Source of the DNA: Caldicoprobacterales bacterium
Lineage (GTDB): Bacteria > Bacillota > Clostridia > Caldicoprobacterales > UBA3941
Direction: 5' to 3'
NCBI GenBank assembly: GCA_050949255.1
Contig: JBMNFJ010000016.1
Span: 524,665-588,664, forward strand
Length of the DNA: 64,000 nucleotides
Position 1 is the stretch's first letter; every line of letters begins with the position of its first letter. The notes beneath the pieces are model-generated. The model had not been told where the DNA came from. It did not search any database and saw only the letters and a program-made list of their open reading frames with translations. Positions 49,389 to 60,350 of the stretch are shown here, piece by piece. Both the position numbers and the translations under genes were made by a program.

Positions 49389-49838
49389 TTGGATAAGTGG
49401 GACAAGAGATTTATGGAAATGGTAAAGGTAATCGCTGGGTGGTCCAGCTGTTATCAACATAATAGAAAGATTGGCGCCATCATAGTGAAAAACAAAAGAA
49501 TATTAACTACCGGATATAACGGTGCACCTTCGGGCTATCCCAGCTGTGTAGAACGGCAGGAATGCATAAGAAGAATTAGAGAGATCCCCTCAGGAACCAA
49601 ACATGAATACTGTTATGCCATCCATGCTGAGCAAAATGCTATCGTGCAGGCCGCAAGATTGGGGGTATCTATAGAGGGAGCTACCCTGTATTGTACCCAT
49701 CAACCCTGTGTCATTTGTGCAAAATTAATAGTAAACAGTGGCATTATCCGGGTGGTATATGGAGAACCATACCCCGATAGCCTGGCTACGGAAATACTGG
49801 AGACTGTCGGGGTTAGCCTGGAAAGATATATTGAATAA
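49389..49838 (+). CDS. comEB: dCMP deaminase (ComEB-type cytidine/deoxycytidylate deaminase)
   Basis: HAEQNAI and PCVICAKL zinc-binding motifs. 149 aa. TTG start after GGGGGA. Confidence 0.85.
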   Translation: MDKWDKRFMEMVKVIAGWSSCYQHNRKIGAIIVKNKRILTTGYNGAPSGYPSCVERQECIRRIREIPSGTKHEYCYAIHAEQNAIVQAARLGVSIEGATLYCTHQPCVICAKLIVNSGIIRVVYGEPYPDSLATEILETVGVSLERYIE

Positions 49839-49856: not shown

Positions 49857-50639
49857 CTATTCGTCGTCATTGGAAGAAGCAGGCGGTTCCATGTATTTAC
49901 CTGATAACGTTTGAAGAGTTCTGGGTAGCGCATCCCTGGAATTACCCCATGGCTTGTCCTGGTTTCGATAATCGAATTTTTGTGTATACCATAATAAATC
50001 AGCTTCTAATTGATCAAAGGTTTTTGTTTGGATTGGTAGAATAAAATCGATCCATCTATTAAAGTGTTTAGCGGATAGGGTTTCATCCGCTATTTTCATA
50101 ATCAATGCAAAATGATGGAGGCAAAATCCTTTTGAGTTTTTCAAGGTCTCGATAAAATTGTTGTCCTTTTGCCAAAGATAAATAATTGTATATGCATATC
50201 TTTTTAATAGATTTTCCAACCTATCGCATATCATGCAGCTATGATGATGTTCGTCCAGCCATTCTAATAGATTACTTAGAGGACTATCTGACCCTCTACC
50301 TTTTCCTGTCAGTTTAGAGCTAAAGCGTGAAATTAGTCCTTTTTTACCTCTTTTTAAGTCTTTGGTAAGCTTTGCAAACTCACCAATTGTTTCTTTTAAA
50401 TGTGTGTGAGTTATTAAAGCAAGACCAAGGCGATTTTTCTCACCATAGAGCTGTCTAAAATGATCACCGCAAAAACCTATCCTATTTACATCAATTCTGG
50501 TGCTGGGCTCCATTACCGACCCACCAAGGAAAAAATCCACGTATTTTTTTTCAGAATTATACTCTAATACACATAGTGGACATTGGTCTTTTTGGTCATA
50601 GGCATCCCATACAGGAATGGTATCTATATGGTATTTCAT
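49857..50639 (-). CDS. Cys-rich hypothetical protein (possibly DUF6062-like)
   Basis: 260 aa. MKYHIDTIPVWDAYDQKDQCPLCVLE, GFCGDHF, HHSCMICDRL and GFCLHHF suggest two CxxC/His-containing metal sites. The family name is recalled from memory only. Confidence 0.45.
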   Translation of the reverse strand: MKYHIDTIPVWDAYDQKDQCPLCVLEYNSEKKYVDFFLGGSVMEPSTRIDVNRIGFCGDHFRQLYGEKNRLGLALITHTHLKETIGEFAKLTKDLKRGKKGLISRFSSKLTGKGRGSDSPLSNLLEWLDEHHHSCMICDRLENLLKRYAYTIIYLWQKDNNFIETLKNSKGFCLHHFALIMKIADETLSAKHFNRWIDFILPIQTKTFDQLEADLLWYTQKFDYRNQDKPWGNSRDALPRTLQTLSGKYMEPPASSNDDE

Positions 50640-50762
50640 TGTTATCCTCCCTGATTATATACTAAACGCATTGTATCATAAATCAAAAGATACCGCCATA
50701 AATATTAAACAGGTAGCCAAGGTATATATAAACAAAGATATTTATAAGGGGAGGATTTGGAC

Positions 50763-51680
50763 ATGCGATATTCGAGGATAAGAAGGGCAAGAAATCAAAA
50801 GCGCTATGCTATAGTTCTTTTGATTGTATTCCTAATACTGGGAGGTGTTTATTTTCTCATGGCTGGTACCATAGGTAAGGCTATCAGCAATATCATAACC
50901 CCTATCTTAAAAACCAAAGTGGGTACTGAACAGGATGGACAAGATGAGCATATTACAGATGAGATTGGTTCGGAAGGAGAGGACACAGAGTTGACTCTCC
51001 CAAAGGAAGAAAATGAGGATAATCAGGGTCCCCGTATAACCGAGTTAATAAAGATAGAAGCAAAGAGTTTTTTTGGGATACAGTTGGGTGCCTTCAATAA
51101 TAAGGAGAATGCTCTATTCATTGCCAATGAGCTAAAGAAAAAGGGAGCAGCAGGATATGTACTGGAAGATCAATTTTCCAGGGTCTTAGCTATTATATTT
51201 CAGTCACAGGATGATACTAGGGCGGTCATAGAACAACTTAAAGCCCAATCGGTAGATTCTCAGATATATGAACTCAAGTGCCCCGGAGTAGATATGGAGA
51301 TAACAGCTTCAAGTGAAAAGGTGGAGGGTATTAAATCCTCATACGCAATGGTTATGGATAATTTTGGATTAATGGAATCTATTATCAAGGACTTGGATAA
51401 GGATAAAATTACTAAAGAAATAGCTTTGGAAAAAATCAGGAATATAATCGATAATATAAAGGAAAAAACAGATCAGCTACAAGCATATTCGACTGATGAA
51501 GAAGGTAGACTGGTGTTATCAGGTTTGAAGGACTTTCTTTCTGCACAGATTGATAATTTAGAAGATATATTACTGGGAAACACATCGGATAGAGTAGAAA
51601 TTTCCTCCAAGATAAAGTATACTTATATAGACATGGCAGTTAAGTATAAAAAATATATGGAACAAATTGCTAACGGATAG
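50763..51680 (+). CDS. Membrane-anchored SPOR-domain protein
   Basis: ATG 50763 follows AAGGGGAGGA. TM helix (AIVLLIVFLILGGVYFLMAG), acidic linker, and a SPOR-like FFGIQLGAFNNKENALFIANELKKKGAAGYV. Confidence 0.65.
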   Translation: MRYSRIRRARNQKRYAIVLLIVFLILGGVYFLMAGTIGKAISNIITPILKTKVGTEQDGQDEHITDEIGSEGEDTELTLPKEENEDNQGPRITELIKIEAKSFFGIQLGAFNNKENALFIANELKKKGAAGYVLEDQFSRVLAIIFQSQDDTRAVIEQLKAQSVDSQIYELKCPGVDMEITASSEKVEGIKSSYAMVMDNFGLMESIIKDLDKDKITKEIALEKIRNIIDNIKEKTDQLQAYSTDEEGRLVLSGLKDFLSAQIDNLEDILLGNTSDRVEISSKIKYTYIDMAVKYKKYMEQIANG

Positions 51681-51693
51681 GGAGAGATAGCAT

Positions 51694-52041
51694 TTGAAGA
51701 TATCAACTATAAAGGACCTGTTGGAGGCAGAATTAATTGTTGGTGAGGAATTTCTGGACCACGAAGTAGTATCTGCATGCGGGTCTGATTTGATGAGCGA
51801 TGTATTGACCTTTGTAAAAGAACAAACAGTGTTGCTAACCGGACTCAATAACCCCCAGGTGATCCGCACAGCTGAGATGTTGGATGTTTCCTGCATCGTA
51901 TTTGTGAGAGGAAAAAAACCTACTCAAGACATTATAAATATGGCACTGGAGCGTGATATAGTGTTATTGTCCACTGATAACACATTATTTGAGGCGTGCG
52001 GCAAACTTTATGAAGGCGGACTTAGGGGAGACATGAGATGA
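51694..52041 (+). CDS. DRTGG domain protein (copy 1)
   Basis: 115 aa. ...ACGSDLMSDVLTFVKEQTVLLTGLNNPQVIRTAEMLDVSCIVFVRGKKP... matches the DRTGG-domain pattern. TTG start 13 nt after the SPOR gene. ATGA overlap with the next gene. Confidence 0.7.
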   Translation: MKISTIKDLLEAELIVGEEFLDHEVVSACGSDLMSDVLTFVKEQTVLLTGLNNPQVIRTAEMLDVSCIVFVRGKKPTQDIINMALERDIVLLSTDNTLFEACGKLYEGGLRGDMR

Positions 52042-52478
52042 CGGTGGAATCTAATGAATATATCGGCATGATCCACAGCTATGAAATAGAAGCGGGTAAT
52101 TTTACCAAGGCCGGTGAAGCGGCTAGTAGTATTAAGAGACTTTTAAGGCAATTAGGTGTTGATGCCAATGTTATTAGAAGGGTGTCCATAGCTGCTTATG
52201 AAGCAGAAATGAACATGGTTATCCACTCAATAGGTGGGAATATTCAAATAGAAATAAGTCCGAAAGCCATAGTGTTCAAGGCCGTAGACGAAGGGCCGGG
52301 TATAGAGGATGTTAACTTAGCTATGGAAGAGGGATTCTCCACAGCCAAAGAATGGGCTAGAGAATTGGGTTTTGGGGCCGGTATGGGATTGCCCAATATA
52401 AAAAGATGTTCTGATGAATTTCATATCCAATCTGAAGTGGGGCAAGGCACCTATTTAGAAGCAAAATTCATATTATAG
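52038..52478 (+). CDS. SpoIIAB/RsbW-like GHKL ATPase (anti-sigma-factor-type serine kinase fold)
   Basis: 146 aa. N-box EAEMNMVIHS, G1 DEGPGI and G2 GAGMGLPNI. There is no HisKA or DHp domain. Confidence 0.75.
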   Translation: MTVESNEYIGMIHSYEIEAGNFTKAGEAASSIKRLLRQLGVDANVIRRVSIAAYEAEMNMVIHSIGGNIQIEISPKAIVFKAVDEGPGIEDVNLAMEEGFSTAKEWARELGFGAGMGLPNIKRCSDEFHIQSEVGQGTYLEAKFIL

Positions 52479-52603
52479 ATATACTAATCATTGGCTATAG
52501 TTACATAGTAAGAATACCGAAATTGGTTTCGGAAAATATTGGGACAACAAGCAGCCAATTGTACATATAATGACCTATCTATGTAAAAAGGAAGGTGAGC
52601 TAT

Positions 52604-53956
52604 ATGCAGGGGTACTACCATTCCGTAACCTTGGATGCAGACAAATGCATGGGGTGTACCAATTGCATTAAGAGATGCCCCACAGAGGCCATTCGAGTCC
52701 GGGATGGCAAGGCATATATAATAGCTGAACGCTGTATAGATTGCGGGGAATGTATCCGAGTATGCCCTTATCATGCCAAAATTGCCGTTACCGATCCCTT
52801 AGATGCTATATATGATTATAAGTATAAGATAGCACTTCCTGCACCCACTTTATATGGCCAGTTTAAAGACCTAACCAGCATAGACAGTGTTTTACATGGC
52901 CTCAAGCTCTTAGGATTTGATGATGTTTTTGAAGTAGCCAGAGGCGCCGATTTTGCTACCGAATTTACAAAGTACCAGATCAAGCATACTAATCCCAAGC
53001 GGCCTATTATTTCTTCATCTTGTCCAGCTGTGGTTAGATTGGTGCAAGTTAGGTTTCCTGAACTGATATCCAATCTTGCCGATGTTCAATCTCCCATGGA
53101 GATTGCTGCCCAGATTGCCAAGGATAATTTTAGCAGAGAACACGGGGTGGATATAGAAGAAATAGGCGCTTTTTTTATAACTCCTTGTGCGGCGAAAGCT
53201 ACCAGTATTAGGAATCCATTGGGTACAGAAAGATCCAGTGTCGATGGGTCTATATCAATCCTGGATATATATGGTCCTCTATCATTGGTAATGAACAAGG
53301 CTGATAATTCATGTGTTACTACCAGTCTTCGAAAATCTACCCTAAAGGGTGTAGGCTGGGCAAACTCAGGTGGCGAAGGATCTTCCTTAGACATAGATAG
53401 TTATTTGTCAGTGGACGGTATTCCCAACGTCATCAAGGTTTTGGAGGAAATTGAGAATGGTAAGCTATCGGATCTGGATTTTTTCGAAGGTCTGGCCTGT
53501 GTAGGTGGATGTGTCGGTGGTCCGCTGGTTTTTGAGAATAACTTTGTTGCACAAAATAGGTTGAGGAAGCTTATTAGTAAGATTGAAGACTCCGAACCTA
53601 TCGCCCATGAAGAATTTAAAATGGCTTTGGAGAAGTACGACTGGAAGTTTAATAAGGAGATATTACCAAAGCCAATAATGAGATTGGATGATGATATTTC
53701 ATCTGCTATAAAGAAGATGGAGGAATTGGAGCGGATTTATGCCGATCTTCCCGGTTTGGACTGCGGATCTTGCGGTTCTCCCAGCTGTAGAGCCTTGGCT
53801 GAGGATATAGTAAGGGGATATACTACCGAATTTGATTGTATCATTAAGCTTAGGGAGAAGATAAGAAACCTAGCGAGAGAATTTGGGGAGTTATCGGATA
53901 ATCTGCCTACAGGAATAGATAGAAGCGATACAGGAGGATTAAAACATGAGGATTAA
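52604..53956 (+). CDS. HydS-like (putative sensory) [FeFe]-hydrogenase homologue with C-terminal RnfB-type Fe-S motif
   Basis: Two ferredoxin motifs (CMGCTNCIKRCP, CIDCGECIRVCP). Degenerate H-cluster motifs SSSCP, TPCAAK and ACVGGCVGGP. C-terminal LPGLDCGSCGSPSCRALAEDIV. ATG 52604 follows AAGGAAGGTG. Confidence 0.75.
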   Translation: MQGYYHSVTLDADKCMGCTNCIKRCPTEAIRVRDGKAYIIAERCIDCGECIRVCPYHAKIAVTDPLDAIYDYKYKIALPAPTLYGQFKDLTSIDSVLHGLKLLGFDDVFEVARGADFATEFTKYQIKHTNPKRPIISSSCPAVVRLVQVRFPELISNLADVQSPMEIAAQIAKDNFSREHGVDIEEIGAFFITPCAAKATSIRNPLGTERSSVDGSISILDIYGPLSLVMNKADNSCVTTSLRKSTLKGVGWANSGGEGSSLDIDSYLSVDGIPNVIKVLEEIENGKLSDLDFFEGLACVGGCVGGPLVFENNFVAQNRLRKLISKIEDSEPIAHEEFKMALEKYDWKFNKEILPKPIMRLDDDISSAIKKMEELERIYADLPGLDCGSCGSPSCRALAEDIVRGYTTEFDCIIKLREKIRNLAREFGELSDNLPTGIDRSDTGGLKHED

Positions 53957-54290
53957 TGATTTAATTAAGAAGATACCACATACCATATTAGCAGGAGAAG
54001 AATTTTTGAATAGGGAGATAAAATCCGGATATTGTTGTGATCTATTGAGCCGGGTAATGGCCCATGGTCCGAGGAACGGTATATGGATAACCGTCCAAAC
54101 CCACGTTAATATTATTGCTATTGCAACCTTACTTGATATTTCATGTATTATCATCCCTGAGGATATCAGTGTAGACCCAAATACCATAGCAAAGGCCAAT
54201 GAAGAGGAAGTTGTAGTCATATCTTCACCTTTAACAGCTTTTGAATTAGCAGGACGATTATATGAAATGGGAGTAGGCAATCAGAAATGA
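53946..54290 (+). CDS. DRTGG domain protein (copy 2)
   Basis: 114 aa, paralogous to 51694-52041 (GYCCDLLSRVMAHGPRNGIWITVQTHVNIIAIATLLDISCIIIPEDISV). It overlaps the upstream gene by 11 nt and the downstream gene by ATGA. Confidence 0.7.
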   Translation: MRINDLIKKIPHTILAGEEFLNREIKSGYCCDLLSRVMAHGPRNGIWITVQTHVNIIAIATLLDISCIIIPEDISVDPNTIAKANEEEVVVISSPLTAFELAGRLYEMGVGNQK

Positions 54291-54988
54291 GAATAGCCGT
54301 CGATCTACATATACATTCAGCCCTCTCGCCCTGCGCTGATGATGATATGACCCCTAATAACATAGTAAATATGGCAATGCTAAAGAAGCTGGATGCAATA
54401 TCCATTACAGACCACAACAGCTGTGACAATGTAGAGGCAGTCATCAAAGCAGCGGGTTCCAAATTGATGGTTGTGCCCGGTATGGAAGTACAAACCAGGG
54501 AGGAGGTCCATCTTTTATGCTATTTTAATTGTTTGGACAAGCTGATGGACTTTGGGGAAGTAATAAAAAATGAATTACCAAAGATATCAAACGTTCCCAA
54601 GATATTTGGCAACCAATTAATAATAGACGATGAGGATAGGGTAGTTGATGAAAGGAAAGAGATGCTGATATCGTCGACGGATTTATCAATAGATCAAATC
54701 ATAGAGGAAGCTATTAGCAGGGATGGGGTGGCGATCCCTGCCCATGTGGATAAACCATCTTACAGTATCATTTCTCAGTTGGGTTTTATACCCAAAAATT
54801 TGGAGGGTGGAATGGTAGAGATAAGTGGTTATAGTAATGAGCTTCTTACCAAGTTTCCCTCCCATAAGCTTTTATATTCCTCAGATGCCCATGAATTAGG
54901 GCAAATACTAGAGCGAGTTAATTTTATAACCGTATGCGATTTATCTGTTTCAGGCATTCTCAACGCCTTAAGAAGCCCGTCTAAATAA
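54287..54988 (+). CDS. PHP-domain metal-dependent phosphoesterase
   Basis: The N-terminal DLHIHSALSPCADD and ITDHNS His/Asp motifs, plus the later AHVD and SDAH, are typical of the PHP superfamily. Confidence 0.75.
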   Translation: MRIAVDLHIHSALSPCADDDMTPNNIVNMAMLKKLDAISITDHNSCDNVEAVIKAAGSKLMVVPGMEVQTREEVHLLCYFNCLDKLMDFGEVIKNELPKISNVPKIFGNQLIIDDEDRVVDERKEMLISSTDLSIDQIIEEAISRDGVAIPAHVDKPSYSIISQLGFIPKNLEGGMVEISGYSNELLTKFPSHKLLYSSDAHELGQILERVNFITVCDLSVSGILNALRSPSK

Positions 54989-55199
54989 AGCATGTGTGGA
55001 TCATTATTGATAATCCCATCTCTGTATCGGAAATACGAAATTGACAATTAAATAACAAAAAGATTCTGAATATTTTATCGTTTTGTATCTCTGACTTGTA
55101 CTTAATTAATTTATTAAGGCAAAAAAATGCATGCATATAGTTTATTTTGTCGAATTGCACAGGACAACAAAAATAACTTAAAAATATTTCGTTAAATAT

Positions 55200-55228
55200 A
55201 TGACAAATATAAAAAAATGTGTTAGAAT
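55200..55228 (+). promoter_or_regulatory. SigA-type promoter of the hydrogenase structural operon
   Basis: ATGACA, exactly 17 nt, TAGAAT preceded by TGT (extended -10), 126 nt upstream of ATG 55354 in a 365-nt AT-rich spacer. Confidence 0.6.
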
Positions 55229-55353
55229 GTCCTTGTATTTTGATTTGTATAGAAAAATACGGCAAGTCATACAAGCTACCTCTATTAGGGATAGTTTTTA
55301 AGCTTTGCCGACAATAACAATTTTATAGCTATTATTTTGGAGGAGGGGACAAA

Positions 55354-55839
55354 ATGTCAGCCATAGATTTAGAAAATCAGGAGAAATTTCAGCAGCTTCA
55401 AAAGGTCATTGACGAGTGGAAGGATAAAGAAGGTCCGCTTATGCCAGTCCTTCATAGCGCTCAGGAGATTTTCGGATGCCTATCCCTTGATGTACAAAAG
55501 TATATATCCAAGGAATTAGATATCCCTGTTAGTGATATTTATGGGGTTGCGACTTTTTACTCCCAGTTTACTTTAAAGCCTAAGGGCAAATATAGAATTG
55601 GGGTATGTATGGGTACAGCCTGCTATGTAAAGGGTGCTCAGGCTATATTAGATGAACTTAAAAAGGTATTAGATTTAGAAGTGGGGGAGACCTCCGATGA
55701 TGGACTATTCACCTTGGATGCTACCAGGTGTTTAGGAGCATGTGGTCTAGCTCCCATCATGATGATCAATGATGACGTATATGGCAGGTTAAAACCCGAA
55801 GATGTTAAAGGAATAATTGACAAATACAGGGATAAATAA
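55354..55839 (+). CDS. hydC: [FeFe]-hydrogenase gamma subunit, NuoE-like [2Fe-2S] protein
   Basis: 161 aa. CMGTACYVKG and CLGACGLAPIMMIND cysteine motifs of NuoE/HydC. RBS GGAGGAGGGG. Confidence 0.88.
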   Translation: MSAIDLENQEKFQQLQKVIDEWKDKEGPLMPVLHSAQEIFGCLSLDVQKYISKELDIPVSDIYGVATFYSQFTLKPKGKYRIGVCMGTACYVKGAQAILDELKKVLDLEVGETSDDGLFTLDATRCLGACGLAPIMMINDDVYGRLKPEDVKGIIDKYRDK

Positions 55840-55841
55840 CC

Positions 55842-56393
55842 ATGCAGGATTTATCGCTGCACATTTTGGATCTTATACAAAATTCTATAGCGGCTGGCGC
55901 TAGCCTAATTAAACTGACAATATACGAGGATAAGGAAAAGAATTGGCTTACCATAGATATAGAGGATAATGGTAAAGGAATGGATAAAATAGCTATGAGG
56001 AGAGCAGCCGATCCATTTTACACTACCCGATCTACCCGTAAAGTAGGGTTGGGGTTGCCACTCTTTGTAGCAATGGCGCAAAGGTGTGGGGGAGATGTAG
56101 TCCTCAAATCCACTAAGGGTAAAGGAACCAGCATAAAATCCGGATTCCAACTAAACCACATAGACCGACCGCCTTTTGGAAAGTTGGAGGATACCATTAC
56201 AACCTTGATTCTATGTAATCCAGATATAGATTTTGTATATATCCATAAGGTTAATGACGATGAATTTAAGCTAGACACTAGGGATATCCGGCAAATCATA
56301 GGAGATATTCCCATCGAACATCCTGAAATAATTAATTGGATTCAATCTTATATGAAGGATGGACTCAATGAAATAAATGGAGGTGTCCAATAG
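55842..56393 (+). CDS. Stand-alone GHKL (histidine-kinase-like) ATPase embedded in the hydrogenase operon
   Basis: 183 aa. N-box LDLIQNSIAAGA, G1 DNGKGM and G2 GLGLPLF. No sensor, DHp or receiver domain. It begins 2 nt after hydC and ends overlapping the next GTG. Confidence 0.75.
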   Translation: MQDLSLHILDLIQNSIAAGASLIKLTIYEDKEKNWLTIDIEDNGKGMDKIAMRRAADPFYTTRSTRKVGLGLPLFVAMAQRCGGDVVLKSTKGKGTSIKSGFQLNHIDRPPFGKLEDTITTLILCNPDIDFVYIHKVNDDEFKLDTRDIRQIIGDIPIEHPEIINWIQSYMKDGLNEINGGVQ

Positions 56394-56767
56394 TGAAGAC
56401 CTTAAAAGAGTTGGAAGAGATAAGACAAAGAACGCTAGAATCTGTAAACTTAAGAAAGGACAGAACAGGCGCCAGAGTGGTAGTTGGTATGGCAACCTGC
56501 GGTATAGCGGCTGGCGCTAGACCCATACTAATGGCTTTTCTTGAAGAGATTAAAAATAGAAGCCTCAAGGATATAACCGTTACTCAGACCGGGTGCATTG
56601 GTGTTTGTCGTTTAGAGCCAATGGTTGAAGTCTATTTGCCTGGTAAGGATAAAGTAACATATGTCAAGATGACACCTGAAAAGGTTAAGAGGGTAGTAGC
56701 TGAGCATTTAGTGAATAATCAAGTAGTTCAAGAATTTACAATAGGGGCAGCAGAAAAGAATGATTAA
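56393..56767 (+). CDS. Thioredoxin-like [2Fe-2S] ferredoxin
   Basis: 124 aa. MATCGIAAGA ... TGCIGVCRLEPMV cysteine pattern. GTG start overlaps the upstream TAG (TAGTG). Confidence 0.8.
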   Translation: MKTLKELEEIRQRTLESVNLRKDRTGARVVVGMATCGIAAGARPILMAFLEEIKNRSLKDITVTQTGCIGVCRLEPMVEVYLPGKDKVTYVKMTPEKVKRVVAEHLVNNQVVQEFTIGAAEKND

Positions 56768-56788: not shown

Positions 56789-58585
56789 ATGGAACTTTAT
56801 CGTTCTCATGTTTTGGTCTGTGGGGGAACAGGGTGTCATTCATCAGGCTCAGCAGACCTAATAGAACATTTTAATAGGGATTTAAAGAAATACGGAATAG
56901 AGAAAGAAGTAAAAGTTGTTCAGACCGGTTGTTTTGGGTTGTGTGAGGTAGGACCGGTTGTTATAGTCTATCCTGAGGGTGCATTCTATAGCAGGGTCAA
57001 GGATGAAGATGTAACCGAGATTGTCTCGGAACACCTTGTTAAAGGGCGGATAGTTAAGCATCTACTATACCATGACAGTGTGGACGGAGATCATGAAATC
57101 AAATCTCTGGATGAAGTACCCTTCTATCAAAAACAGATGAGAGTAGCCCTGCGAAACTGTGGCGTTATAAACCCAGAAAATATCGACGAATATATTGCCT
57201 TTGATGGATATATGGCCCTGGGAAAGGTCTTAACGGAAATGACCCCGGAAGACGTTATAGATATCTTAAAAGAATCGGGACTTAGGGGTCGAGGCGGTGC
57301 AGGATTCCCTGCGGGATTAAAGTGGGAATTTACCTACAAAGCACAGGGGGATAAAAAGTTTGTGGCCTGTAACGCTGACGAAGGTGATCCCGGAGCATTT
57401 ATGGACCGCAGTATTTTAGAGGGTGATCCTCATTCGGTAATAGAGGCTATGACCATTGCCGGATATACTGTAGGTGCCGATCAAGGATATATCTATGTCA
57501 GAGCTGAGTATCCAATTGCCGTGGAGAGACTTACCAAAGCTATAGCACAAGCGCGAGAGTACGGCCTCTTGGGTAAAAATATCCTGGGCACTGATTTCAG
57601 CTTTGATCTGGAATTAAGACTTGGTGCAGGGGCATTTGTTTGTGGTGAAGAGACTGCTCTTATGGCTTCCATCGAGGGTGATCGTGGAGAACCAAGACCA
57701 AGACCGCCTTTTCCTGCGGTAAAGGGGTTGTTTGGTAAGCCCACCCTGTTAAATAATGTTGAAACATATGCAAACATACCTCAAATTATTCTAAAAGGTC
57801 CCAAATGGTTCCAGGGCATTGGTACCGAGAGGAGTAAGGGTACAAAGGTTTTTGCATTGGGTGGAAAAATAAATAATACAGGATTAGTTGAGGTACCAAT
57901 GGGGACAACACTCAGGGAGATCATATATGAGATCGGGGGAGGAATTCCCGAAGGAAAGACCTTTAAAGCTGCACAAACCGGCGGTCCCTCAGGGGGATGC
58001 ATTCCTGCGGAGCACTTGGATACCCCCATCGATTATGATTCTCTTACTGCTATAGGCTCTATGATGGGCTCGGGCGGTTTGATTGTAATGGACGAAGATA
58101 ATTGTATGGTGGATATCGCCCGTTTCTTCCTGGAGTTTACTGTTGAGGAATCCTGCGGAAAATGTCCTCCTTGTCGTATAGGGACAAAGAGGATGCTGGA
58201 CCTTTTAAATAAAATCGCGGAAGGCAAAGGTGAAGAAGGGGATCTGGAAAAGCTTGAGGAATTAGGCGAAGGTATAAAAATAGCTTCACTATGCGGTCTC
58301 GGACAATCCGCGCCCAACCCCGTACTGAGCACAATTAAGTACTTCAGGGAAGAATACGAGGAACATATAAGGGATAAGAAATGCAGGGCAGGAGTATGTC
58401 AGGCACTGCTTCAATATATCATTATTGAGGACAAATGCAGAAGCTGCGGTCTGTGCGCAAGGGTCTGTCCCGTCAACGCCATTTCCGGACAGAAGAAGCA
58501 ACCCTATGTTATAGACCAGGATTCCTGCATTAAATGTGGGGCTTGCATGGAAAGATGTCCTTTTGATGCCATTGTTAAAAGGTAA
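56789..58585 (+). CDS. hydB: [FeFe]-hydrogenase beta subunit, NuoF-like NADH/FMN-binding protein
   Basis: N-terminal thioredoxin-like 2Fe-2S (CGGTGCHSSG...GCFGLCEVGP), GRGGAGFPAGLKW FMN/NADH site, ESCGKCPPCR cluster, and two C-terminal ferredoxin motifs (CRSCGLCARVCP, CIKCGACMERCP). Confidence 0.92.
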   Translation: MELYRSHVLVCGGTGCHSSGSADLIEHFNRDLKKYGIEKEVKVVQTGCFGLCEVGPVVIVYPEGAFYSRVKDEDVTEIVSEHLVKGRIVKHLLYHDSVDGDHEIKSLDEVPFYQKQMRVALRNCGVINPENIDEYIAFDGYMALGKVLTEMTPEDVIDILKESGLRGRGGAGFPAGLKWEFTYKAQGDKKFVACNADEGDPGAFMDRSILEGDPHSVIEAMTIAGYTVGADQGYIYVRAEYPIAVERLTKAIAQAREYGLLGKNILGTDFSFDLELRLGAGAFVCGEETALMASIEGDRGEPRPRPPFPAVKGLFGKPTLLNNVETYANIPQIILKGPKWFQGIGTERSKGTKVFALGGKINNTGLVEVPMGTTLREIIYEIGGGIPEGKTFKAAQTGGPSGGCIPAEHLDTPIDYDSLTAIGSMMGSGGLIVMDEDNCMVDIARFFLEFTVEESCGKCPPCRIGTKRMLDLLNKIAEGKGEEGDLEKLEELGEGIKIASLCGLGQSAPNPVLSTIKYFREEYEEHIRDKKCRAGVCQALLQYIIIEDKCRSCGLCARVCPVNAISGQKKQPYVIDQDSCIKCGACMERCPFDAIVKR

Positions 58586-58610: not shown

Positions 58611-60350
58611 ATGGATATGATTAAGGTAAAAATAGATGGCATAGAAGTGGAAGTACCTGCAGGTACTACAGCCTTGGAAGCTGCTAGGAAAGCGAATATT
58701 GATATACCCACTTTATGTTATCTTAAGGATATAAATGAAATCGGTGCATGTCGCATGTGTTTGGTAGAAGTAGAAGGGGCTAGAAACCTTCAGGCCTCTT
58801 GTGTATTCCCTGTTGCAGACGGGATGAGCATCAAGACCAATACTCCCAAGGTCAGGGCTGCCAGGAAGCTCAGCCTTGAACTTATACTGTCAAATCATGA
58901 CAGGAAATGCCTGACCTGTGTAAGAAGTCAGGATTGCGAATTACAGGATTTATCGAAAAGGCTGGGGGTTGATGATATCCGCTTCGATGGAGAAAGGCAT
59001 GACAAGCCGGTGGATTCATTCTCGCCCTCTATCGTCAGAGATCCAAATAAATGCATTTTATGCAGACGTTGTGTATCCGTATGCAGGAACGTACAGGGGA
59101 TTGGTGTAATTGGTGCCACTGAGAGGGGCTTTGCTACAATGGTTGAGCCGGTTTTCAACATGAGTATAAATGACGTTCCCTGTATAAACTGTGGACAGTG
59201 TATTATAGCATGCCCGGTAGGTGCCCTAAGGGAAAAAGATGATATCGAAAAGGTATGGGATGCTCTGAACAATTCAAACCTGCATGTGGTTGTACAAACA
59301 GCACCTGCTGTTCGTGTAGCTCTGGGAGAAGAGTTTGGCATGGAAATGGGTACCAGGGTAACGGGTAAGATGGCTGCTGCCCTTAGACGTTTGGGATTTG
59401 ACCGGGTTTTTGATACCGATTTTGCTGCGGATCTAACCATAATGGAGGAAGGTCACGAGCTGTTGGGTAGGCTCCAAGGAGGAGGCAAGCTACCTATGAT
59501 TACCTCTTGCAGCCCCGGTTGGATAAAGTACTGTGAGCATTATTATCCTGAATTTTTGGATAATTTGTCAACATGCAAATCTCCTCATGAGATGATGGGG
59601 GCTATAATTAAGTCCTATTATGCAGAGAAGAACGGTTGGGATCCTGCCAATGTTTTTGTAGTATCCATAATGCCTTGTACCGCAAAGAAATTTGAGGCAC
59701 AACGTCCAGAACTAAGTGCTGTAGGTCATCCCGATGTTGATGTGGTGCTTACCACCAGAGAGCTGGCAAGGATGATCAAGGAAGCGGGTATGGATCTGGC
59801 AACGCTGCCGGATGAGGAGTTTGATCCTGCCCTAGGAGATTCTACAGGAGCAGGTGTCATCTTTGGTGCAACCGGTGGTGTTATGGAGGCCGCCCTTCGT
59901 ACCGTGCATGAGATTGTCACAGGGGAACCCATGGAAAACTTAGAAGTTCATGCAGTACGTGGAATCGAAGGAGTAAAGGAAGCTGAGATTCAGTTAGGGG
60001 ACCTGACCTTAAGAGCGGCTATAGCCCATGGTACTGCTAATGCCAAAGCCTTATTGGAGCAGGTTAAATCAGGTGAAAAGGAATACCATTTCATTGAAAT
60101 AATGGGTTGCCCGGGCGGATGTGTAACAGGTGGTGGTCAGCCCATAGTGAAGGCAAAAACCTACATGGAAATGGATCCAAAGGTAGTGAGGGCTAAAGCG
60201 ATTTATGATGAGGACAGGGATCTGCCCATCAGAAAATCCCATGAGAATCCATCGGTTATAAAATTATACGATGAGTATTTGGGTGAGCCCAATAGTGAGA
60301 AGGCACACGACCTACTTCATACTCATTATACCAGAAGAAGTGTATACTAA
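58611..60350 (+). CDS. hydA: [FeFe]-hydrogenase catalytic (alpha) subunit, group A multimeric/bifurcating type
   Basis: N-terminal 2Fe-2S (CYLKDINEIGACRMC), accessory clusters, and H-domain motifs MITSCSPGW (variant of TSCCP), MPCTAKKFE and EIMGCPGGCVTGGGQP. Confidence 0.92.
   Translation: MDMIKVKIDGIEVEVPAGTTALEAARKANIDIPTLCYLKDINEIGACRMCLVEVEGARNLQASCVFPVADGMSIKTNTPKVRAARKLSLELILSNHDRKCLTCVRSQDCELQDLSKRLGVDDIRFDGERHDKPVDSFSPSIVRDPNKCILCRRCVSVCRNVQGIGVIGATERGFATMVEPVFNMSINDVPCINCGQCIIACPVGALREKDDIEKVWDALNNSNLHVVVQTAPAVRVALGEEFGMEMGTRVTGKMAAALRRLGFDRVFDTDFAADLTIMEEGHELLGRLQGGGKLPMITSCSPGWIKYCEHYYPEFLDNLSTCKSPHEMMGAIIKSYYAEKNGWDPANVFVVSIMPCTAKKFEAQRPELSAVGHPDVDVVLTTRELARMIKEAGMDLATLPDEEFDPALGDSTGAGVIFGATGGVMEAALRTVHEIVTGEPMENLEVHAVRGIEGVKEAEIQLGDLTLRAAIAHGTANAKALLEQVKSGEKEYHFIEIMGCPGGCVTGGGQPIVKAKTYMEMDPKVVRAKAIYDEDRDLPIRKSHENPSVIKLYDEYLGEPNSEKAHDLLHTHYTRRSVY

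Follow-up and report, generated by a model that had tools for sequence, protein, structure and literature searches.

Among the [FeFe] hydrogenases, the M2e or 'group D' proteins were listed by Carere et al. 2012, after Calusinska et al. 2010, as Cthe_0335, Csac_1857, Athe_1292 and Teth39_1463 (PMC3561251), and M2e proteins encoded upstream of a trimeric hydrogenase of the bifurcating type, close to a kinase-like gene, have been published (PMC3561251, PMC8163306). Land et al. 2020 described TamHydS as having a 'histidine kinase-like ATPase' beside it and posed as a question how a signal is transferred without a PAS domain (PMC8163306); in the TamHydS papers the native partners are given as unknown. 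Here we analyse a cassette of this kind in a 64,000-nucleotide stretch (hereafter the window) of contig JBMNFJ010000016.1 from an uncultured lineage, a Caldicoprobacterales bacterium. It consists of the genes for a DRTGG-domain protein (DRTGG1), a SpoIIAB-like ATPase (GHKL1), a HydS-like hydrogenase (HydS), a second DRTGG protein (DRTGG2) and a PHP-domain phosphoesterase (PHP), directly upstream of a hyd operon for the bifurcating hydrogenase HydABC. An earlier note, made from the letters of the window alone, had proposed that these genes form an H2/redox partner-switching circuit. The core of this idea, a sensor hydrogenase and a kinase before HydABC, has been in the literature since 2010-2012 and is not new, and the idea that an M2e sensor beside a kinase regulates HydABC is found in those papers; the circuit as a whole is partly supported by the results given below. 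In the searchable literature, outside which Calusinska et al. 2010 lies, we found no link of DRTGG, PHP or partner switching to [FeFe] hydrogenase loci; relative to that literature, the composition of the cassette, its fusion pattern, the conserved serine and the nuclease-like PHP protein are new.

It is likely that the five genes encode a kinase complex centred on HydS, and the bifurcating HydABC is most likely the target controlled by this sensor complex. In the reading that we prefer, to which we give a probability of about 40%, the locus would be a HydS-centred H2/redox signalling complex in which the DRTGG proteins combine the roles of couplers and possible phospho-acceptors. The two paralogous DRTGG proteins, PHP, GHKL1 and HydS are encoded by five open reading frames (ORFs) on one strand (Table 1) that form a translationally coupled unit. 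Read directly from the DNA, ATGA overlaps join DRTGG1 to GHKL1 (52038-52041) and DRTGG2 to PHP (54287-54290), and HydS overlaps DRTGG2 by 11 nucleotides (nt; 53946-53956), with AGGAGG 8 nt 5' of ATG 53946. The coupled ORFs, the overlaps and the 125-nt spacer before HydS were all confirmed as the earlier note had described them. ATG 52604 carries the ribosome-binding site GGAAGGTG, which is better than that of GTG 52595, and is the likelier start of HydS; HydS residues are numbered from it.

At least 587 species-level genomes encode a HydS relative, and the cassette was compared in the best 80 species-level loci, with HydS proteins 50-68% identical to that of the window, by searching their ORFs with ten window proteins. 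The order DRTGG1, GHKL1, HydS, DRTGG2, PHP and the strand are always the same. GHKL1 stands directly 5' of HydS in all 76 assessable loci, and DRTGG1 is present in 71 of 73, DRTGG2 in 67 of 76 and PHP in 61 of 69. That about 80 species-level genomes show this gene order goes far beyond what chance would produce. The genes from hydC to hydA follow directly after PHP in 42 of 62 loci, a strong association of the cassette with hydrogenase operons of the nuoE/nuoF type that answers the question of neighbourhood raised by the earlier note; the gap between PHP and hydC in relatives spans 91-719 nt, apart from a single locus with 2855 nt. Since the flanks of loci without hydCBA are unrelated to one another, the five genes appear as a self-contained module. 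In 8/8 cases a locus that lacks one of DRTGG2 and PHP lacks the other as well, and hydCBA is downstream in none of the eight loci without PHP, compared with 42 of the 62 with PHP (Fisher p = 3e-4, an indicative value that ignores kinship). Upstream genes are common only to close relatives, and the module ends at PHP. No recurrent helix-turn-helix, sigma or receiver gene was found in the first four to five genes on each side of the 80 loci (genes clustered, families read by eye), which extends the earlier statement to both flanks across these genomes. A conserved output gene at the flanks was rejected, as lineage-specific synteny and hyd genes alone recur in the 80 loci.

Its sequence places the central protein among the putative sensory [FeFe] hydrogenases of group D (M2e), those of the TamHydS type. 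Pfam matched Fe_hyd_lg_C (2.2e-35), FeS (PF04060; 2.2e-11) and two N-terminal Fer4 ([4Fe-4S]) motifs at residues 12-34 and 40-61, in which C15/C18/C21/C25 and C44/C47/C50/C54 are invariant or nearly so. The degenerate H-cluster motifs noticed earlier, SSSCP, TPCAAK and ACVGGCVGGP, can each be read in the translation, and the catalytic motifs are not intact. The four cysteine ligands of the H-cluster are found (C140, C195, C299 and C303), and the proton-relay cysteine (C299 of the hydrogenase CpI) is replaced by Ser139; this position holds Ala in 54/80 relatives and in TamHydS, and Ser in 7/80. Thr193, before P-C195, replaces Met353 of CpI, and Leu297 replaces Met497. The glutamate pair E258/E295 is invariant and 37 residues apart, a spacing identical to that of E252/E289 in TamHydS, and the C-terminal motif of an extra [4Fe-4S] site, C387x2C390x4C395x16C412 (Cx2Cx4Cx16C), occurs in 78 of 80 relatives. 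The residues highlighted in TamHydS (R30, R32, K35, K58, D378-C379 and D403-C404) were all found at consistent offsets. The TamHydS papers report that C299 is lost, usually to Ala, that a hydroxyl residue occupies position 353 and, in TamHydS, Leu position 497, and that there is a Cx2Cx4Cx16C site, no PAS domain and a proton path via E252/E289 (PMC8163306). No PAS family matched HydS in Pfam and NCBIfam scans, including at the C-terminus, where group C (M2f) proteins carry a fused PAS domain, and the protein ends 38 residues past its last cysteine. The earlier label of HydS type thus stands in the sense of a sensor-type hydrogenase, but the protein is not of the PAS-bearing type and instead falls in group D/M2e. 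The family is very large, with more than 8000 protein clusters at E 1e-20; identity to the nearest species-level genome is 68%, and to Caldicoprobacter, the nearest genus with a name, about 65%.

GHKL1, the gene that always accompanies HydS, is predicted from sequence and fold to encode a SpoIIAB/RsbW-type ATPase with an intact ATP site. It matched HATPase_c_2 in Pfam (E 6.5e-10), its best sequence match in the PDB is SpoIIAB, and the N box (E55/E57/N59), G1 box (D84xGPG88) and G2 box (G111FGAGMG117) are invariant in 77 sequences. The match to the NCBIfam model spIIAB (TIGR01925; E 1.7e-13, 50.6 bits) lies under the equivalog cut-off of 135 for the anti-sigma F factor, and GHKL1 is therefore a relative and not an ortholog. 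In Foldseek searches with an AlphaFold2 model of a natural DRTGG1-GHKL1 fusion, the ATPase half resembled SpoIIAB most closely (1til/1tid; template modelling score, TM, 0.80-0.84, E 4e-10, root-mean-square deviation 2.2-2.7 A), followed by RsbW (6m36/6m37; TM 0.78-0.86). The SpoIIAB-like ATPase of the earlier note is therefore borne out by sequence, fold and motifs.

DRTGG1 matched the Pfam family DRTGG (PF07085) at E 1.3e-6 (28.6 bits, gathering cut-off 25.2), while DRTGG2 (E 1.5e-4, 22.0 bits) was just under the cut-off; all domain calls made earlier have Pfam support. The two proteins are paralogs (cross-matches at E 1e-12); in Pfam they also match Hpr_kinase_N weakly (E 1.2e-3 and 7.2e-3) and have no STAS match. 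The best PDB sequence match of DRTGG1 is AF1212 (2ioj), which is also matched by the DRTGG half of the fusion model (TM 0.79) together with the DRTGG domain of CBS-pyrophosphatase; HPr kinase/phosphorylase (1ko7) stands lower in the Foldseek list (TM 0.31-0.33). Both paralogs possess the site D32-L-[LM]-S35-x-V37, and D32, S35, V37 and T49 are at least 95% conserved (n = 73 and n = 59). Invariant residues of DRTGG1 are C29, D32, M34, S35, D36, V37, T49-G50, R58-T59 and R72-G73-K74-x-P76, of which R58-T59 and R72-G73-K74-x-P76 are conserved in DRTGG1 only; those of DRTGG2 are D32-L-L-S35-x-V37, W47 and T49. Ser35 is kept in distant loci and in fusion proteins. In the fusion model, strand 27-30 is followed by a short helix (34-39) with Ser35 in its first turn, and within the DRTGG part the model is least confident here. 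Ser35 appears to be a credible candidate phospho-acceptor in both paralogs.

Fusions place the DRTGG domain next to its possible partners. DRTGG1 and GHKL1 form one polypeptide in the loci L076 and L080, and a search with such a fusion gave at least 120 protein clusters, the 120 best of which are all 256-279 amino acids (aa) long with a coverage of 96-100%. They derive from Tepidanaerobacter, Thermosediminibacter, Caldanaerovirga and Thermovenabulum, and from a second group about 45% identical to the query; one cluster of this distant group is labelled Aminicenantales, and the cassette extends past the lineages of the 80 loci. In four loci with the distant fused kinase (L081-L084), the genes DRTGG-GHKL1, HydS, DRTGG2, PHP, GHKL2, hydC, hydB and hydA follow one another without gaps. 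A search with concatenated DRTGG2 and PHP found two independent DRTGG2-PHP fusions (P0270 and P0288), and one direct fusion of DRTGG to HydS was found, P0488, a protein of 556 aa on a single 2.4-kb contig. The one small domain thus occurs in covalent fusion with all three larger proteins. In a HMMER search with DRTGG1, nearly all of the 730 clusters (50% identity) at E <=1e-10 were stand-alone proteins of about 115 aa. P0374, which combines SPOR with DRTGG, and P0484 and P0449, in which a truncated DRTGG is attached to peptidase M3 or ArgJ, look like read-through or chimeric gene calls and were not counted as fusions.

The model of the DRTGG1-GHKL1 fusion, built from 98 sequences, has a mean predicted local distance difference test (pLDDT) of 87.2, a predicted TM score (pTM) of 0.72 and a disordered linker of 19 residues, and this pTM, reached despite the linker, may point to a definite placement of the domains relative to each other. 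DRTGG is known from enzymes that nucleotides regulate, and in CBS-pyrophosphatase the domain takes part in dimer formation. Together, the fusions, the shared loss of DRTGG2 and PHP, the dimer role in CBS-pyrophosphatase and the analogy to HPr kinase speak more for DRTGG as a tethering or coupling domain, possibly one that is also phosphorylated. The earlier view of the DRTGG proteins as STAS-like substrates is therefore supported in one respect, since an invariant serine at the start of a helix fits a phospho-acceptor, but the fusions and the co-loss are better suited to a tether.

The PHP protein matched Pfam PHP (E 7.4e-7) and, best among the NCBIfam models, the N-terminal PHP domain of TrlF (4.5e-18), with Ppl also matched; the source names of its relatives include 'PHP family Zn ribbon phosphoesterase'. 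Its invariant residues occupy metal-ligand positions (H8, H10, D42-H43, E67, H75, H153, D200 and H202). The AlphaFold2 model (pLDDT 95.2, pTM 0.92) is closest in fold to Endonuclease Q (EndoQ; 5zb8/7k30, TM 0.73-0.74, E 1.5e-11), and RNase AM, BAD_1165, AMP-bound Cv1693 (2yb1), which we take to be a pAp phosphatase, and PHP domains of Pol III are further neighbours among the 50 Foldseek matches listed. RNase AM (7ug9) was also matched in the PDB sequence search. The protein has 233 aa compared with 395-400 aa in the EndoQ targets (TM normalised to target 0.45); it covers the core only, leaving no room for the Zn-finger and C-terminal helical DNA-binding domains that EndoQ presumably carries. 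CpsB/YwqE-type protein phosphatases were absent from the 50 Foldseek matches listed and from the PDB sequence search with E up to 1, and an assignment to this type was rejected for want of a structural or sequence match. Taken together, sequence and model make PHP more likely a nuclease-type enzyme than a phosphatase, and the earlier suggestion that it takes the place of a PP2C phosphatase gains little from neighbours such as EndoQ, RNase AM and pAp-phosphatase types.

Downstream, the hyd operon has the order hydC (nuoE), GHKL2, 2Fe-2S ferredoxin, hydB (nuoF), hydA. HydA passes the cut-off (765) of NF040763, the curated NCBI model for NADH-dependent [FeFe] hydrogenases of group A6, with 942 bits. 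Among solved structures it is closest to 7q4v_A, named 'Iron hydrogenase HydA1' (E 3.5e-250), which we assume to be the Acetobacterium woodii enzyme. HydA possesses TSCSPGW (within 'PMITSCSPGW'), where we take the textbook motif to be TSCCPGW, and by position the Ser presumably corresponds to the [4Fe-4S]-ligand Cys site (CpI C300). The same motif is common to 37/37 HydA orthologs of related loci and 7q4v, which makes it a trait of the clade instead of an error; we found no paper discussing it.

GHKL2 lies inside the hyd operon in 38/40 loci, directly after PHP in L081-L084 and, as a GHKL2-like ORF, after PHP in a locus without hydCBA (L077); it is the sole further gene that travels with the cassette. 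Its best PDB matches are the catalytic ATP-binding (CA) domains of KinB and YycG, and no domain for dimerisation and histidine phosphotransfer (DHp), which would provide a phospho-accepting His, was found by PDB sequence search. A MutL-like clamp, suggested by the N-terminal motif, was rejected, as the best matches are histidine-kinase catalytic domains. The earlier proposal of an output through GHKL2 agrees with its travelling with the cassette, but a kinase output is not supported by a bare histidine-kinase catalytic domain that lacks a His domain.

We also searched the non-coding parts of the locus for control elements. In the spacer between GHKL1 and HydS there is a perfect 6-bp hairpin, CCGAAA TTGG TTTCGG (52517-52532), a terminator-like site on the minus strand; no coding-strand T-run was found 3' of it, and the spacer is not conserved in length, ranging from an overlap to about 760 nt in relatives. 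No Rfam family reached threshold in the cassette-hyd region, including this spacer and the 365-nt hydC leader, and with no such match, no T-run and a variable spacer, a riboswitch or structured RNA was rejected. The best plus-strand promoter-like site of the cassette-hyd region is sigma-70-like (55200-55228; ATGACA-17-TAGAAT with an extended TG, 10/12 matches), and hydCBA may have its own promoter, separate from the cassette. Of the PHP-hydC spacers, 18/42 contain Rex-like boxes (TTGTTAA-N4-TTAACAA, <=2 mismatches), as do 8/70 of the regions that lie upstream of DRTGG1 (among others in L003, L009, L011, L012, L039, L047 and L054), a strong enrichment in the hydC leaders of relatives over the background rate of 0.048 per kb. 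At the same threshold, no such box occurs in the two upstream regions of the window (PHP-hydC and before DRTGG1), and Rex control of this locus was rejected. In relatives hydCBA, and sometimes the cassette, may thus be under NADH/NAD+ control, and in this organism perhaps not.

In the HydS-centred complex that we favour, the DRTGG domains would replace the missing PAS domain as coupling modules, with DRTGG1 tethering GHKL1, and DRTGG2 tethering PHP, to HydS, to one another or to both. HydS, through a redox state that its C-terminal cluster reports, would shift the balance between ATP-dependent phosphorylation and phosphoester hydrolysis, and the most likely phospho-acceptor would be Ser35 of the D-L-[LM]-S-x-V site. 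Such an arrangement would resemble the stressosome, with scaffold proteins that double as kinase substrates; the scaffold proteins RsbR and RsbS of the stressosome are also substrates of the kinase RsbT. The output would not be a cis-encoded DNA-binding protein, and may be either a partner encoded elsewhere that is bound and released by GHKL1, or direct control of HydABC, possibly through GHKL2.

Several points weigh against this reading. The genomes behind our counts are phylogenetically related and the counts are thus not independent, the group D literature concerns the isolated TamHydS enzyme only, and in about a third of the genomes the cassette lies away from hydCBA. Two loci, L063 and L071, keep only GHKL1 and HydS without any DRTGG gene, and DRTGG therefore cannot alone serve the kinase as partner or substrate. 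A pocket for phosphate or a nucleotide, or an interface, would explain the DRTGG site, with R58, R72 and K74 conserved in DRTGG1, equally well, and the closest folds of the PHP model are nucleases and nucleotide phosphoesterases with no protein phosphatase. Moreover, since many hydC leaders of relatives have Rex-like boxes, transcription of the operon is possibly controlled independently.

A strict partner switch, in which free DRTGG antagonists are phosphorylated by GHKL1 and dephosphorylated by PHP as a phospho-Ser phosphatase while a sigma factor or another regulator encoded elsewhere is sequestered, seems unlikely to us. The SpoIIAB/RsbW-like fold of GHKL1 with its intact ATP site, the invariant Ser that both of the small alpha/beta paralogs have at the N-terminus of a helix, and the presence of kinase-like and phosphoesterase genes in one coupled unit would all suit it, and the PHP superfamily does include phosphomonoesterases and the protein-Tyr phosphatases CpsB and YwqE. 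However, the cassette has neither a STAS nor a PP2C domain in Pfam, the nearby genes include no conserved sigma factor or other target, PHP has EndoQ and RNase AM as its nearest neighbours with no protein phosphatase among the 50 matches listed, and eight genomes do without PHP and DRTGG2. DRTGG-kinase fusions are the rule in whole lineages, and fusions to PHP and HydS occur too, unlike what is expected of a diffusible antagonist. Those same affinities of PHP lend themselves to another explanation, which we regard as rather improbable as well: PHP would be the effector and act, as a phosphodiesterase of the EndoQ/RNase AM kind, on RNA, for instance the long hydC leader, or on a nucleotide messenger, with DRTGG2 as its regulatory subunit, DRTGG1-GHKL1 as an ATP switch and not a protein kinase, and HydS as the gate. 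It would account for the fold neighbours (EndoQ, RNase AM, BAD_1165, 2yb1 and Pol III PHP), for the sequence matches to RNase AM 7ug9, TrlF and Ppl, and for the complete set of metal ligands. The DRTGG2-PHP fusions and co-loss, the correlation of PHP with hydCBA directly downstream, the presence of DRTGG in nucleotide-regulated enzymes and a PHP-hydC gap of usually roughly 90-700 nt are also consistent with it. On the other hand, PHP has only the 233-aa core and not the additional domains of the EndoQ proteins of about 400 aa, the leader has no conserved RNA structure or Rfam family, and PHP abuts the next gene, with almost no leader, in L081-L084; the kinase-type features of GHKL1 would be left without a role, and the explanation is entirely inferential.

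The cassette may also have no regulatory role and supply accessory, assembly or repair parts for HydABC (an ATP-dependent chaperone or cluster repair), or a slow H2-cycling enzyme, which we consider very unlikely. TamHydS does slowly catalyse reversible H+/H2 interconversion, but its low turnover, high H2 affinity and CO tolerance resemble those of regulatory hydrogenases (PMC8163306). The operon linkage with structural genes would agree with such a role, as would the label 'putative' that the literature continues to give to a sensory function of groups C and D. GHKL-type ATPases include chaperones; GHKL1, however, is of the SpoIIAB/RsbW type and not of the Hsp90 or MutL type, the known maturases HydE, HydF and HydG are presumably unrelated to the cassette proteins, and the third of cassettes not beside hydCBA speaks against a part made for HydABC. 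A bolder combination, to which we assign a low probability, would see DRTGG domains as universal couplers that, in place of PAS or STAS domains, join an Fe-S/H-cluster sensor, a SpoIIAB-type ATPase and an EndoQ-like PHP enzyme, with an output in which PHP cuts an RNA or nucleotide signal or HydABC is modified in an ATP-dependent manner. If this were true, it would mean H2-dependent post-transcriptional or post-translational control without a transcription factor, by a complex of a previously unrecognised kind.

Table 1. Features of the cassette and the hyd operon, in positions of the window (cassette ORFs from the ORF list; E-values and scores from Pfam and NCBIfam models)
Feature	Position	Strand	Description
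DRTGG1	51694..52041	+	115 aa, stand-alone DRTGG-domain protein, TTG start, candidate partner of GHKL1
GHKL1	52038..52478	+	146 aa, SpoIIAB/RsbW-type ATPase or Ser-kinase-like protein
GHKL1-HydS spacer	52479..52603	.	125 nt, 6-bp hairpin at 52517-52532
HydS-like group D (M2e) putative sensory [FeFe] hydrogenase	52604..53956	+	450 aa from ATG 52604; GTG 52595 possible
DRTGG2	53946..54290	+	114 aa, DRTGG1 paralog, candidate partner of PHP
PHP-domain metal phosphoesterase	54287..54988	+	233 aa, Endonuclease-Q-like PHP core
PHP-hydC gap	54989..55353	.	365 nt, AT-rich, sigma-70-like site 55200-55228
HydC	55354..55839	+	NuoE/HoxE-like 2Fe-2S subunit; 2Fe-2S_thioredx 4.7e-53; HoxE/NuoE NCBIfam models
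GHKL2	55842..56393	+	183 aa, stand-alone histidine-kinase-type ATP-binding domain with extension of ~80 aa; HATPase_c 3e-14
2Fe-2S ferredoxin-like protein, small, HydD-like	56393..56767	+	2Fe-2S_thioredx 8.6e-6; fdxn_Clost 4.9e-11
HydB (NuoF-like flavoprotein subunit)	56789..58585	+	Complex1_51K 6.5e-45; NADH_4Fe-4S 2.5e-34; nuoF_fam 4.8e-151
HydA, catalytic [FeFe] hydrogenase, bifurcating/NADH-dependent type	58611..60350	+	NF040763 942 bits

The surroundings of the cassette vary among lineages. Upstream of it in the window are genes for a dCMP-deaminase-like protein (49389-49838), a Cys-rich protein of 260 aa on the minus strand (49857-50639) and a protein of 307 aa (50757-51680) that looks SPOR-like; the L001 counterpart of the last reads likewise, and in P0374 a SPOR domain is joined to DRTGG. 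The three are syntenic in about 10-13 related loci and belong to lineage synteny, not to the cassette. A second hydC-hydB-hydA set was seen upstream of the cassette in L016 (1854-7517), L025 (1457-6923), L039 (330-6071) and L054 (2037-7634), with unusually long HydB ORFs of about 1050-1100 aa and without GHKL2 or the small ferredoxin. In the two loci that keep only GHKL1 and HydS, genes read by eye include a CheW-like ORF that overlaps the start of GHKL1 in the usual DRTGG1 slot (L071, 9062-9529), and an OmpR-type response regulator upstream of GHKL1, itself preceded by a 925-aa ORF (L063, 8678-9397). Heterodisulfide-reductase (Hdr)-like genes precede the fused DRTGG-GHKL1 gene in the distant metagenome contigs L081-L084; for instance, Fer4, CCG-domain and FAD proteins are encoded at 5678-7999 of L081 and 5685-8004 of L083. 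An FlpD/MvhD-like gene is found downstream in both (16363-16819 of L081 and 16260-16831 of L083), and L083 also has a [NiFe] small-subunit-like gene. These Hdr-like and FlpD/MvhD-like flanks hint at a larger electron-bifurcating assembly.

The bifurcating HydABC sets the balance of H2, ethanol and acetate in fermenting Clostridia, and its control matters in the rumen, the gut, anaerobic digesters and biofuel strains. Our survey names candidate partners for a sensory hydrogenase, with GHKL1 invariable and DRTGG1, DRTGG2 and PHP near-invariable. The natural fusions point to possible contacts, Ser35 is one residue to mutate, and the question of how PAS-less sensory hydrogenases signal becomes directly testable. 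Deletion of a group C sensor raises the ethanol yield (PMC5707799), and the cassette is therefore a plausible engineering target.

Among known systems, the group D loci (TamHydS of Thermoanaerobacter mathranii, Cthe_0335, Csac_1857, Athe_1292 and Teth39_1463) have the same architecture in the same position, and the spacing of locus tags (Cthe_0335, then Cthe_0338-0342) fits two genes between HydS and hydC. Compared with them, the window adds a new lineage, with its best relative 68% identical, and a Ser at the relay position instead of the usual Ala. The group C (M2f) HydS/HfsB proteins, found in Thermotoga maritima, in Ruminococcus albus (HydS) and in hfsABCD of Thermoanaerobacterium, have also lost the relay Cys and have the same C-terminal Fe-S site, but they carry a fused PAS domain, which HydS of the window lacks. 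The partner of group C is a PP2C-type phosphatase, and the places of the phosphatase partner are held here by the DRTGG proteins and the PHP enzyme. A regulatory role of hfsB is backed by genetic evidence (PMC5707799). In the HoxBC/HoxJ/HoxA system of Ralstonia eutropha, a low-activity hydrogenase senses H2, forms a complex with a kinase and controls hydrogenase genes (PMC5707799). However, HoxBC is a [NiFe] protein with an unrelated metal centre and of an unrelated family, and it works through a true histidine kinase and a response regulator, whereas no His-phosphotransfer domain, receiver or DNA-binding output is seen here.

The partner-switching modules (SpoIIAB-SpoIIAA-SpoIIE, RsbW-RsbV and RsbR-RsbS-RsbT-RsbX) are similar in other respects: GHKL1 shares size, motifs and fold with SpoIIAB/RsbW, and the cassette likewise has two small paralogous alpha/beta partners with a Ser at the start of a helix, together with a hydrolase gene. 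It differs from them in having no STAS, no PP2C (SpoIIE/RsbU/RsbX) and no sigma factor, and in possessing DRTGG partners that are often fused to the kinase. HPr kinase/phosphorylase has a DRTGG-related N-terminal domain before its Ser-kinase domain and in this parallels the DRTGG1-GHKL1 fusions, although the matches are weak; its catalytic domain is a P-loop kinase, unrelated to GHKL. Finally, the branch of Endonuclease Q and RNase AM includes the best neighbours of PHP, which has the full set of metal ligands and is represented here by the 233-aa core only.

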